Assembly (NCBI GenBank): GCA_040756015.1
Contig: JBFMAC010000007.1
Coordinates: 42,685 to 106,684, forward strand
DNA length: 64,000 nt
DNA from: Pseudomonadota bacterium
Lineage (GTDB): Bacteria > Pseudomonadota > Gammaproteobacteria > Burkholderiales > JBFMAC01
Direction of reading: 5' to 3'
Shown: one piece after another, positions 48,357-50,494 of the stretch
Layout: each line of letters begins with the position of its first letter
How positions within the stretch are numbered: the first letter of the stretch is position 1
Notes under the pieces: generated by a model
Databases searched by the model: none
What the model saw: only the letters and a program-made list of their open reading frames with translations
Told to the model about the DNA's origin: nothing
Position numbers and translations under genes: made by a program

Positions 48357-48794
48357 ATGAAACGAGTCCAACAAGGTTTTACCCTGATTGAATTGATGAT
48401 CGTGGTGGCGATTATCGGCATTCTGGCCGCGATCGCGATCCCGGCTTATAACGACTACACTAAAAAGGCGCGCTTTAGCGAGGTAGTACAGGCTTCGCAG
48501 GCGCTTAAGACCGCGGTTGAAGTGTGTGCCAGCGATTTGAATACCCTGACTGGTTGTTCTGATGGTTCGAATGGTATTCCTGCTGCCGCTGTGAACCCGA
48601 GCACTTATGTTGCTAGGGCTTCTGTAACCGATGGTGTCATTACCATTACCCCCAATGCAACGGGTGGTTTGGCGGCTACTGATACCTATATCCTCACACC
48701 TACCTTGGGAGCCAATGGTGTATCTTGGACCAATGCGGCGGCTGGTGCAGTTAGCGGTTGTATTGCAACCAACCTCTGTAAACAAGTACCGTAA
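48357..48794 (+). CDS. pilA: Type IVa major pilin
   Basis: [31 protein letters not shown] prepilin motif, GGAG RBS and four Cys. Confidence 0.95.
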
Positions 48795-48812
48795 GCTTGT
48801 AATCAGTTGATC

Positions 48813-48846
48813 AAACAAGGGCTCCTAAAAGGAGCCCTTGTTTTTT
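48813..48846 (+). terminator. Rho-independent terminator after pilA
   Basis: aaacaagggctcc-taaaa-ggagcccttgttt followed by ttt (13-bp stem). Confidence 0.85.
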
Positions 48847-48865
48847 ATAGGCAGCATCTTGGGGG

Positions 48866-50494
48866 GTGATTTTGTCGCGATTTTGGATGTGGATCGGTTT
48901 GTTGCCAGCAGCCGTGTTTATCCTGTATTCAGGATCGTTGTCGTACCCCATCGTTTTCGATGACATTTATTTTTTCATAGACCCGAAAACCGCTTACGGG
49001 TATGGAGATTCATTTTTTCATTTCAGCCTGCGCTGGTTGCCTTATGCTTCGCTGGGTTGGACCGCGAACATATTCGGCCTCGACCTGATCAGTTTCCGGC
49101 TCGGCAATCTCTTCCTGCATGTCGTCACTACGTTATTGCTGTTTGTCTTCCTGCGACGCTTATTCGACACGGCAAAACTACCCACAGATGGTTTGAGCAG
49201 CAACTGGCTGGCTTTTTTCGGGGCGCTCATATTTTCCCTGCACCCGGCTGCGGTGTACGGTGTGGCATACCTGATCCAGCGTACCATTTTGATGGCTACC
49301 TTGTTTGTGCTGCTGATGCTGCTGGCTTATTGGCGTGGATTGGAGCGCAACCAAACACGCTGGCTGGTGGCGGCGGCCTTATTTTATTTTCTTGCGGTGT
49401 TCTCCAAGGAACACAGCATCATGGCGCCGGCCCTGGCGCTGGTACTGACCCTGCTGTTGCGCACCCCCTCGGTTGCATTGTTCAAGCAGGTGGCATGGTT
49501 TTATGTATTATCTGCGGCTATTGGCCTGCTGGTTGTTTTAAAGCTCAGGGGGGTGCTCGGCGCGCCCTATGAAATGTTCGGGCCGGAAATGCTCAAGCGC
49601 ATGGCAGAAGCACAAGGTATGGTCGAGATCGAGCATGCACACATTTTAAGCGTTATTACGCAGTCCGCTTTTTTCTTCAAGTACCTGTTGTTATGGCTGA
49701 TACCCAACCCGGCCTGGATGTCGGTGGATATGCGCGAGCCATTTGCCGTTAGCTGGTGGTCATGGCCGCATACGATAGGGTTTATCGCTTTCTGGATTTA
49801 TCCACTGATTGCGGGCTGGTTGCTGTTACAACGAGGAATAAAAGGTTTGTGGGGCCTTGCTTTATTGTTTCCCTGGGTGTTGTTTTTCACCGAATTTGCC
49901 AGCATCCGTATACAGGAGCCCTTTGTGCTTTATCGCAGTTACTTGTGGATGGCCGGCTTGGTGATTGTGTTTCCATTGTTATTTATCAGAGTGCAGGCAA
50001 AGCGCGCTGCGATAGGCCTGGGGCTGATCAGCGTACTGATGGTGCCGCTGGCCTGGAATAGGCTGACGACGTTTTCCCATCCGTTGTTGTTGTGGGATGA
50101 CGCGGCAACCCTGGTCGAGGGCAAGCCTTATCAGCCTGGCATGGAGCGCATTTTCCATAATCGCGGCATCATGCTTTCAAAAACCAAGTTGAAACAGGAA
50201 GCCATCGACGACTACACAACTGCGATCAATATGAAGCCTGACTATAGTTATGCTTATAGCGATCGCGGTGCCATGTATTATGAGATGAAAAGATTTGCCG
50301 AAGCGCTCCAGGATTTTGATACTGCCATCACCTTGAATCCGACTTACCCCAACCCCTACCAGGGGCGGGGGCTGGTTTATGTCGAGTTGGGTGATCGCGC
50401 GAAGGCAATGGAAGATTTCAGGAAAAGCTGCGAATTGGGAAGGCGCGGCTGCGACAAGCTGAAAGAACTGTCGCAGTCGTCACCCATCCAGTAA
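48866..50494 (+). CDS. TMTC-like GT-C membrane protein with C-terminal TPR repeats
   Basis: Multi-TM N-terminal region with FDD, LFLH, LHP and FSKE motifs; TPR repeats NRG...A..DY..AI. Confidence 0.75.
   Translation: MILSRFWMWIGLLPAAVFILYSGSLSYPIVFDDIYFFIDPKTAYGYGDSFFHFSLRWLPYASLGWTANIFGLDLISFRLGNLFLHVVTTLLLFVFLRRLFDTAKLPTDGLSSNWLAFFGALIFSLHPAAVYGVAYLIQRTILMATLFVLLMLLAYWRGLERNQTRWLVAAALFYFLAVFSKEHSIMAPALALVLTLLLRTPSVALFKQVAWFYVLSAAIGLLVVLKLRGVLGAPYEMFGPEMLKRMAEAQGMVEIEHAHILSVITQSAFFFKYLLLWLIPNPAWMSVDMREPFAVSWWSWPHTIGFIAFWIYPLIAGWLLLQRGIKGLWGLALLFPWVLFFTEFASIRIQEPFVLYRSYLWMAGLVIVFPLLFIRVQAKRAAIGLGLISVLMVPLAWNRLTTFSHPLLLWDDAATLVEGKPYQPGMERIFHNRGIMLSKTKLKQEAIDDYTTAINMKPDYSYAYSDRGAMYYEMKRFAEALQDFDTAITLNPTYPNPYQGRGLVYVELGDRAKAMEDFRKSCELGRRGCDKLKELSQSSPIQ

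Follow-up and report, generated by a model that had tools for sequence, protein, structure and literature searches.

INTRODUCTION

TfpW (GenBank AAM52060.1), the group IV pilin glycosyltransferase of Pseudomonas aeruginosa Pa5196 and P. paraeruginosa PA7, is encoded immediately after the pilin gene pilA and, as experiment has shown, glycosylates internal Ser/Thr residues of that pilin (bioRxiv 10.1101/2020.04.19.049825). It is a 646-aa glycosyltransferase of the GT-C class with its N-terminus in the cytoplasm, 11 transmembrane (TM) helices by prediction and, at the C-terminus, a large domain of tetratricopeptide repeats (TPRs) in the periplasm, and glycosylation of the pilin requires a DDX motif in its periplasmic loop 1 (10.1101/2020.04.19.049825). 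The best templates for TfpW were ArnT for the membrane part and O-GlcNAc transferase for the TPR part; homologues with 30–47% identity to TfpW have been published, and pilA-adjacent homologues are found in several other genera (10.1101/2020.04.19.049825). Here we describe a locus of similar design in a window of 64,000 nucleotides (the whole stretch of DNA that was analysed) from a Pseudomonadota bacterium (assembly GCA_040756015.1, contig JBFMAC010000007.1), in which a pilin gene is followed on the same strand by an accessory gene for a protein with a predicted GT-C membrane domain and C-terminal TPRs. By our estimate the chance is about two in three that the locus follows the TfpW design, as a pilin-accessory cassette with a GT-C enzyme that glycosylates PilA.

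A first-pass annotation of the window had read the two genes as a candidate pilin glycosylation module with a bacterial enzyme of the TMTC type, the type of the eukaryotic O-mannosyltransferases TMTC1–4. It had named TfpW only as one of the genes that can fill the slot behind pilA, and it missed that TfpW itself has the same GT-C/TPR build.

RESULTS

The accessory gene is often paired with pilin genes across its family

The close family of the accessory gene comprises 81 loci, 80 of them fetched from 185,579 species genomes and one being the locus in the window. A pilin gene lies directly upstream on the same strand in 60 of the 81, with a median gap of 117 bp, and several of the remaining 21 loci have too little upstream DNA to judge. 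The corresponding gap in the window is 71 bp. The pairing extends well beyond close relatives. Run on 400 Gammaproteobacteria genomes sampled evenly over the whole GTDB class, a TM-domain profile matches 116 (∼29%), with typical products of 620–720 aa; among 28 distant loci, which share ∼22% identity and were examined with ∼1.5 kb of flank each, 14 have a pilin gene immediately upstream on the same strand. The linkage to pilA, whose frequency the first-pass annotation had proposed as a check on its reading, is thus far beyond chance in the close and the distant loci alike. In a full protein library clustered at 50% identity, 67,900 clusters match the same profile at E ≤ 1e-3 and 672 at E ≤ 1e-30.

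Because the pair is found in differing genomic contexts, the cassette travels as a module. In ∼35 relatives it directly follows an operon for a GAF-ATPase and an HD-GYP protein, and among the genomes of the class sample the nearest relative, G343, carries it with other flanking sequence. Where the operon precedes the pair (in L060–L063, for example, at ∼100–5300), it encodes a cyclic-nucleotide-binding rhodanese, a metallo-beta-lactamase-fold protein, a GAF-domain ATPase of the PilB/GspE type and a GAF/HD-GYP protein. In the genome studied here this operon sits elsewhere, so that the cassette has moved relative to it.

Chance adjacency is excluded because the pilin–GT-C pairing is kept in related genomes. 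The broader idea, that the two genes are neighbours by accident or are a decaying, horizontally acquired remnant without present function, is hardly credible. The low GC content of the locus and a location unlike that in its relatives would fit such a remnant, but both reading frames are intact, all residues that are invariant in the family are kept, the pairing recurs in the 60 loci mentioned above, and by a motif scan of the 2.35-Mb genome this is the sole PilA-type major pilin of an organism that has a full retraction and minor-pilin set. The genome encodes PilT/PilU and several PilB-type ATPases; the minor pilins are on contig C22, and other pseudopilin-like genes are on contigs C8 and C13.

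The pilin has the make-up of a type IVa major pilin, namely a short leader ending in Gly, a Phe of the kind that is N-methylated, Glu5, a hydrophobic N-terminal helix and a C-terminal disulfide loop. Its Pfam matches are to N_methyl (E 1.4e-10) and Pilin (E 8e-7), while its best NCBIfam match, the prepilin-peptidase-dependent pilin, falls below cut-off. The four Cys residues and the terminal Pro noted in the first-pass annotation are both present: two of the Cys form the C-terminal C-IATNL-C, and the protein ends in CKQVP. The sequence AAGGAG lies 5 nt ahead of the ATG, and the promoter-like element listed in Table 1, read in the light of other type IVa pilin genes, suggests that pilA may be under control of the PilR/RpoN type.

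The accessory protein is predicted to be a GT-C enzyme with a periplasmic TPR domain

The start of the accessory gene is uncertain (GTG 48866, TTG 48872, ATG 48887 or TTG 48902), and residues are numbered below on either the 542-aa or the 530-aa product. The motifs given in the first-pass annotation, FDD in the first loop, LHP and FSKE, are found at residues 31, 125 and 179 (542-aa numbering), and the TPRs follow as it described. Indeed, we could locate every sequence feature that it had named, and only its description of the pilin as Thr/Ser-rich proved weak.

The membrane domain was modelled with AlphaFold2 (AF2) on an alignment of 47 TM domains, which gave a pLDDT of 92.3 and a pTM of 0.93. 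Nearly all of the PDB neighbours that Foldseek returned for this model are GT-C enzymes (PglB, STT3, AftD, ArnT, Pmt4, Pmt1/2, EmbA/B/C, AftA and ALG3), at probabilities mostly of 0.9–1.0 and TM-scores of up to 0.56. With a full-length model, Foldseek returned TPR proteins only, the best being the TPR domain of O-GlcNAc transferase; hence we used a model of the TM domain by itself. On the modelled structure, the accessory protein has a GT-C glycosyltransferase fold. AF2 and Foldseek thus agree on the fold that the first-pass annotation had predicted and on which it had staked its reading.

Family models say less about this domain. No Pfam or NCBIfam model matches it above threshold; PMT_2 of Pfam covers residues 66–224 at an E value of 1.6e-4, with 21.8–22.3 bits against a cut-off of 26.1, and is matched in only 4 of 47 relatives (best E 8.9e-7). 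In the databases, relatives are named ‘tetratricopeptide repeat protein’ and, now and then, ‘protein O-mannosyl-transferase’ (JGI). The C-terminal part is recognized readily: TPR_1, TPR_2 and TPR_8 (Pfam) each match three stretches within residues ∼428–530, the AF2 model has eight helices at 414–525 (530-aa numbering), and the PDB entries that match this part best in sequence and fold are arrays of TPRs, among them that of O-GlcNAc transferase.

We derived the topology by hand from the AF2 helices and hydropathy. The resulting model has 11 TM helices, with the N-terminus predicted to be cytoplasmic and the TPR domain periplasmic, and it conforms to the positive-inside rule, since Lys and Arg make up 11 of 49 residues (22%) in the inside loops versus 10 of 138 (7%) in the outside loops. 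The DD comes directly after TM1, in the predicted first periplasmic loop. It belongs to a set of residues (D20-D21, R44, H73, P115, Y123, R127, K169, P176, E331, R345, Y347 and R387; 530-aa numbering) that are invariant both in 47 close relatives and in 20 relatives of 19–25% identity, and that sit in predicted periplasmic loops or at membrane edges. Such a set has the look of an active site. Its DD and KE have their parallel in motifs of ArnT and of modelled TMTCs that have been tied to catalysis and to metal and phosphate binding (PMC7801869).

The conserved residues bear on whether the accessory protein is an enzyme at all. It might be a non-catalytic factor for pilus assembly or stability that has retained a GT-C-like scaffold, comparable to TfpY and TfpZ or to the TPR proteins of pilus biogenesis. 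Most pilin accessory proteins of P. aeruginosa (TfpX, TfpY and TfpZ) do aid assembly without modifying the pilin (PMC11841053), the TPR part weakly resembles the TPR proteins PilW and Tgl (NCBIfam), and no donor genes are linked to the cassette. A scaffold without catalysis would leave three things to be explained: the DD, KE, HP, Arg and Glu of the predicted periplasmic loops are invariant down to 19–25% identity, a pattern typical of active sites; transferases of lipid-linked sugars share its fold; and the DDX of TfpW is required for glycosylation. We therefore hold an assembly factor to be quite improbable.

A conserved terminator separates the two genes

The strong terminator that the first-pass annotation had placed between the genes is borne out. 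It lies within the gap between pilA and the accessory gene and starts 19 bases past the pilin stop codon, with inverted-repeat arms at 48813–48826 and 48830–48843. Its fold energy is −28.5 kcal/mol (z −4.5), and none of 200 shuffled sequences folds equally well. A simple consensus terminator scan does not list this element; folding and an inverted-repeat search reveal it clearly. Similarly, a hairpin (−14 to −25 kcal/mol) with a U-run is found at the same position in 49 of 52 related cassettes. A terminator that follows the pilin gene and attenuates expression of the accessory gene is a common feature of pilin cassettes (PMC11841053).

The locus shares the design of TfpW and differs from it in detail

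We judged likeness to TfpW by its published description. On that basis the two loci share the slot after pilA, the terminator, the GT-C fold, an ArnT-like membrane domain, the DDX in periplasmic loop 1, 11 TM helices and a periplasmic C-terminal TPR domain, the topology being predicted here. They differ in several respects. First, the accessory protein is ∼100 residues shorter than the 646-aa TfpW and has only three or four TPRs. Second, the motif YX6PFX7P, which marks periplasmic loop 4 of TfpW homologues, is present in part: the accessory protein has PFX7P (PFAVSWWSWP, in the TM7–TM8 loop), with no Tyr at −7 and a Trp at −8, and the full motif is absent from the 20 distant relatives as well. 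Third, no tfpX-like gene lies downstream. Fourth, the donor of TfpW is decaprenyl-phospho-D-arabinofuranose, the product of DprE1, DprE2 and a phosphoribosyltransferase in a pathway that also counts a GtrA-like protein; here a DprE1-type gene is absent, as is a GtrA-family protein. The locus shares the TfpW design and belongs to a distinct subfamily, and what had been called a bacterial TMTC-type pilin glycosyltransferase is, by analogy with TfpW, of a kind already known. The TfpW preprint was the only paper on bacterial TMTC-like enzymes and pilins to come up in a literature search. A search of the 400-genome class sample, together with a search for DprE1-type genes at family level, found no TfpW-plus-arabinose locus; the family searched, taken by guess to be Pseudomonadaceae, had only 7 genomes.

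The resemblance to TMTC1–4 is one of build. Both have 11 TM helices and an external TPR array, a DD in the first external loop, a Lys-Glu at the turn between TM5 and TM6 (SKEHS in the accessory protein versus KET/QxxT in TMTCs) and a long external TM7–TM8 loop with a hydrophobic helix that is not embedded in the membrane (PMC7801869). Compared by description and by Pfam model, TMTCs differ in having DUF1736 (PF08409) and a far longer TPR array. DUF1736 is unmatched at E values up to 1 in the accessory protein and 47 relatives, and at E values up to 0.01 in 10 distant pilin-linked relatives, so that membership in the TMTC family, as the first-pass annotation would have it, does not hold. O-mannose as the sugar is unsupported: nothing in the data indicates it. 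Dolichol-P-mannose is missing from bacteria.

With ArnT, the protein O-mannosyltransferases (PMTs) and PglB the accessory protein has in common the predicted fold, the weak PMT_2 similarity and catalytic acidic residues in the first periplasmic loop; it has no significant sequence match to solved structures. ArnT differs in having lipid A as its substrate and in its lack of a TPR domain, and the MIR domain of PMTs is missing from the accessory protein. TfpO (PilO) is likewise encoded in the slot behind pilA, and both TfpO and PglL glycosylate pilin in the periplasm, but these enzymes belong to the unrelated Wzy_C family and transfer oligosaccharides linked to undecaprenyl-pyrophosphate. The first-pass annotation was right to set aside a TfpO-type modification of a C-terminal Ser, which is impossible here because the pilin ends in Pro and the accessory protein has no Wzy_C domain. 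Indeed, a C-terminal Ser occurs in only 1 of 53 cassette pilins.

The sugar probably differs from that of TfpW

No DprE1-type (ALO-domain) protein was found in the genome, which is 99.99% complete, while Corynebacterium controls were positive, nor was one found in any of 16 other genomes with family homologues, 13 of them pilin-linked. Because there is no DprE1-type gene, the sugar is not D-arabinofuranose supplied by the DprE1 route, and the gene content suggests that the transferred sugar probably differs from that of TfpW. Two polyprenyl-phosphate sugar synthases are encoded in the genome, ArnC and a GtrB/PgfS-like glycosyltransferase of family GT2, and these are potential suppliers of a donor. 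ArnC lies in a complete arn operon with its own ArnT. A lipid-linked sugar made by either synthase could be shared with the cassette enzyme; no link to the cassette is seen, and the donor is the weakest part of the proposed mechanism.

We considered the GtrB/PgfS-like GT2 on contig C3 (C3:180835–181779) as an orphan dedicated to the cassette enzyme and rejected this, since its cluster also contains a PMT-like GT-C. That cluster (C3:173573–183626) encodes an MsbA-like ABC transporter, the GtrB/PgfS-like enzyme, a DegT-type aminotransferase, an MBOAT acyltransferase and the 462-aa PMT-like GT-C, and probably serves to modify lipid A, lipopolysaccharide or another envelope target with an amino sugar. 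Two Wzy_C proteins are encoded elsewhere in the genome. One, of 639 aa (C13:47484–47948; L131), lies ∼9 kb from a second set of pilin-like genes (C13:37659–38649) with a PilB-type ATPase. This protein is a possible O-oligosaccharyltransferase of the PglL type and, as such, would give a second route of protein glycosylation.

The two genes form a low-GC island

The features of the locus are collected in Table 1. The island is 2.4 kb long with a GC content of 50.6%, compared to 61.4% and 60.8% in the 5-kb flanks, in keeping with the first-pass observation that both genes are more AT-rich than their surroundings. Windows of this size with as low a GC content make up 1.1% of the 2.35-Mb genome, whose mean is 61.5%. 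A search at the island found neither flanking direct repeats nor an adjacent tRNA and thus no evidence of insertion as a mobile element. Judged by eye, the upstream flank (43962–48138) encodes an MltD-like lytic transglycosylase with LysM repeats, a glyoxalase II-like hydrolase, a methyltransferase, RNase HI and DnaQ; the downstream flank (50503–53944), on the opposite strand, encodes a radical-SAM protein, an FAD-dependent reductase and a protein like lipoate-protein ligase.

Table 1. Positions in the window of the pilin cassette, its parts and the adjoining genes
Feature	Position	Strand	Details
dnaQ-like gene	47434-48138	+	adjoins the island upstream
Low-GC two-gene island (pilA, terminator, GT-C/TPR gene)	48139-50502	both genes +	from GC content and gene calls
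Sigma-54-type promoter-like element, TGGCAC-N5-TTGC	48293-48307	+	consensus match (-24/-12) read from the sequence; ~50 bp 5' of pilA
pilA, type IVa major prepilin, 145 aa	48357-48794	+	Pfam N_methyl and Pilin; leader MKRVQQG
Intrinsic terminator or attenuator	48813-48850	+	perfect 14-bp stem, 3-nt loop, T-run
Accessory gene (GT-C/TPR)	48866-50494	+	542 aa from GTG 48866; database version 530 aa from TTG 48902
Predicted GT-C transmembrane domain, residues 1-422	48866-50131	+	AF2 and Foldseek
C-terminal TPR domain, residues ~423-542, predicted periplasmic	50132-50494	+	Pfam TPR, AF2
Radical-SAM-like gene	50503-51621	-	adjoins the island downstream, convergent

DISCUSSION

If the locus is a pilin glycosylation cassette, it might work as follows. 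The pilin gene would be transcribed, probably from the sigma-54-type promoter, and the terminator would let only a fraction of transcripts through, keeping the accessory enzyme low relative to the pilin. The accessory protein would be a GT-C enzyme of the inner membrane, with its active site and TPR domain in the periplasm, and its sugar would come from a donor linked to polyprenyl phosphate, once this has been flipped to the periplasmic side. The DD of loop 1 and the Lys-Glu at the turn between TM5 and TM6 would serve catalysis and the binding of metal or phosphate, as in ArnT, PMTs and modelled TMTCs, while the TPR domain would grip the pilin, still anchored in the membrane, by its globular domain ahead of assembly. 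One or more sugars would then be transferred to hydroxyls of internal Ser/Thr residues of PilA before it enters the fibre. The analysis shows the anatomy of the genes, the fold, the residues that are conserved and the conservation of both the pairing and the terminator; we infer the lipid-linked donor, the pilin as acceptor and the O-linkage to Ser/Thr.

Several findings weigh against this reading. The family is not exclusively pilin-linked, as a nested clade lies in a cytochrome/NHL-repeat cluster and an unlinked paralogue is present in the same genome (C5:68094–69470, L004; 458 aa, with FQFDD, VHP and TKE motifs and a short TPR tail). For the TM-domain model Foldseek gives E values no better than 5e-3, which is modest, and no PDB sequence is a meaningful match to a profile of that domain. 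The supply of a donor is also in question: none of the 81 loci has a donor-synthesis or flippase gene linked to the cassette, no GtrA-family protein was found in the 99.99% complete genome, and both polyprenyl-phosphate sugar synthases adjoin a GT-C partner of their own. Finally, the pilin is Thr/Ser-rich in only a weak sense, since Ser and Thr make up 23% of its globular part, an ordinary value among 53 cassette pilins with a median of ∼24%.

The family members that lie away from pilins bear most directly on the acceptor. The accessory protein could be a true GT-C enzyme facing the periplasm whose main acceptor is not PilA, acting instead on several envelope proteins or on a glycolipid or polysaccharide, in which case its position after pilA would reflect co-regulation or co-transfer only. 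The monophyletic clade between an NHL-repeat lipoprotein and a tetrahaem cytochrome, the unlinked paralogue, the roughly one-half of the fetched distant homologues that have no pilin within their short flanks, and the action of TMTCs of the same build on many cadherin domains (PMC7801869) would all fit a wider or different choice of acceptor. Set against these, the same-strand pilin adjacency and the conserved attenuator persist at ∼22% identity and in varied contexts, which is hard to explain without a functional tie; the neighbouring pilin is the substrate of TfpW, the only enzyme with this build to have been studied; and TPR domains point to a protein rather than a lipid as acceptor. We consider a main acceptor other than PilA unlikely, and prefer the pilin as the substrate.

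As to the non-pilin loci themselves, the paralogue on C5 adjoins succinate dehydrogenase-like and citrate synthase-like genes, with no pilin nearby. In the monophyletic clade (L013, L014, L016, L017, L019–L024 and L027) the GT-C genes are at ∼6001–7600, often as tandem duplicates, and their neighbours encode the NHL-repeat lipoprotein, the tetrahaem c-type cytochrome, which has stretches rich in Ser, Thr, Asn and Gly, a dihaem cytochrome and a peptidyl-prolyl isomerase. Its make-up resembles that of the Uet-type cluster for electron uptake that has been reported from Gallionella and Tenderiales. Among pilin-linked members of the family, the tree places the enzyme of the window nearest to the clade. 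The arrangement suggests that the cytochrome-linked clade has switched acceptor.

A wider reading can be offered tentatively, as possible rather than probable. The GT-C/TPR superfamily may be a large class of periplasmic protein O-glycosyltransferases in which the gene neighbour indicates the acceptor; most acceptors would be pilins, TfpW would be an arabinose-specific offshoot, and the Gallionella clade would have switched to components of an extracellular electron-uptake cluster, such as the tetrahaem cytochrome and the NHL-repeat protein. If this were true, iron oxidisers would have glycosylated extracellular cytochromes, and bacteria would have a counterpart of the animal TMTC design.

Glycosylation of pilin alters the surface chemistry of the pilus, and in P. 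aeruginosa it protects against pilus-specific phages. The cassette described here may likewise serve evasion of phages or predators, the phage part being drawn by analogy to P. aeruginosa only. Taken by itself, the window yields a plausible functional annotation that would not surprise a pilus specialist. TfpW, with its unusual arabinose donor, is the only enzyme of the GT-C/TPR design that has been studied, and the locus belongs to a much larger pilin-linked set of the same build that has no arabinose pathway and is annotated merely as ‘tetratricopeptide repeat protein’. The greater interest lies in the size of this little-studied superfamily and in its cytochrome-linked offshoot rather than in the single locus. 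If these enzymes are active, glycosylation of pilins from lipid-linked donors would be far commoner in environmental Proteobacteria, among them iron oxidisers, methylotrophs and nitrifiers, than current annotation indicates.

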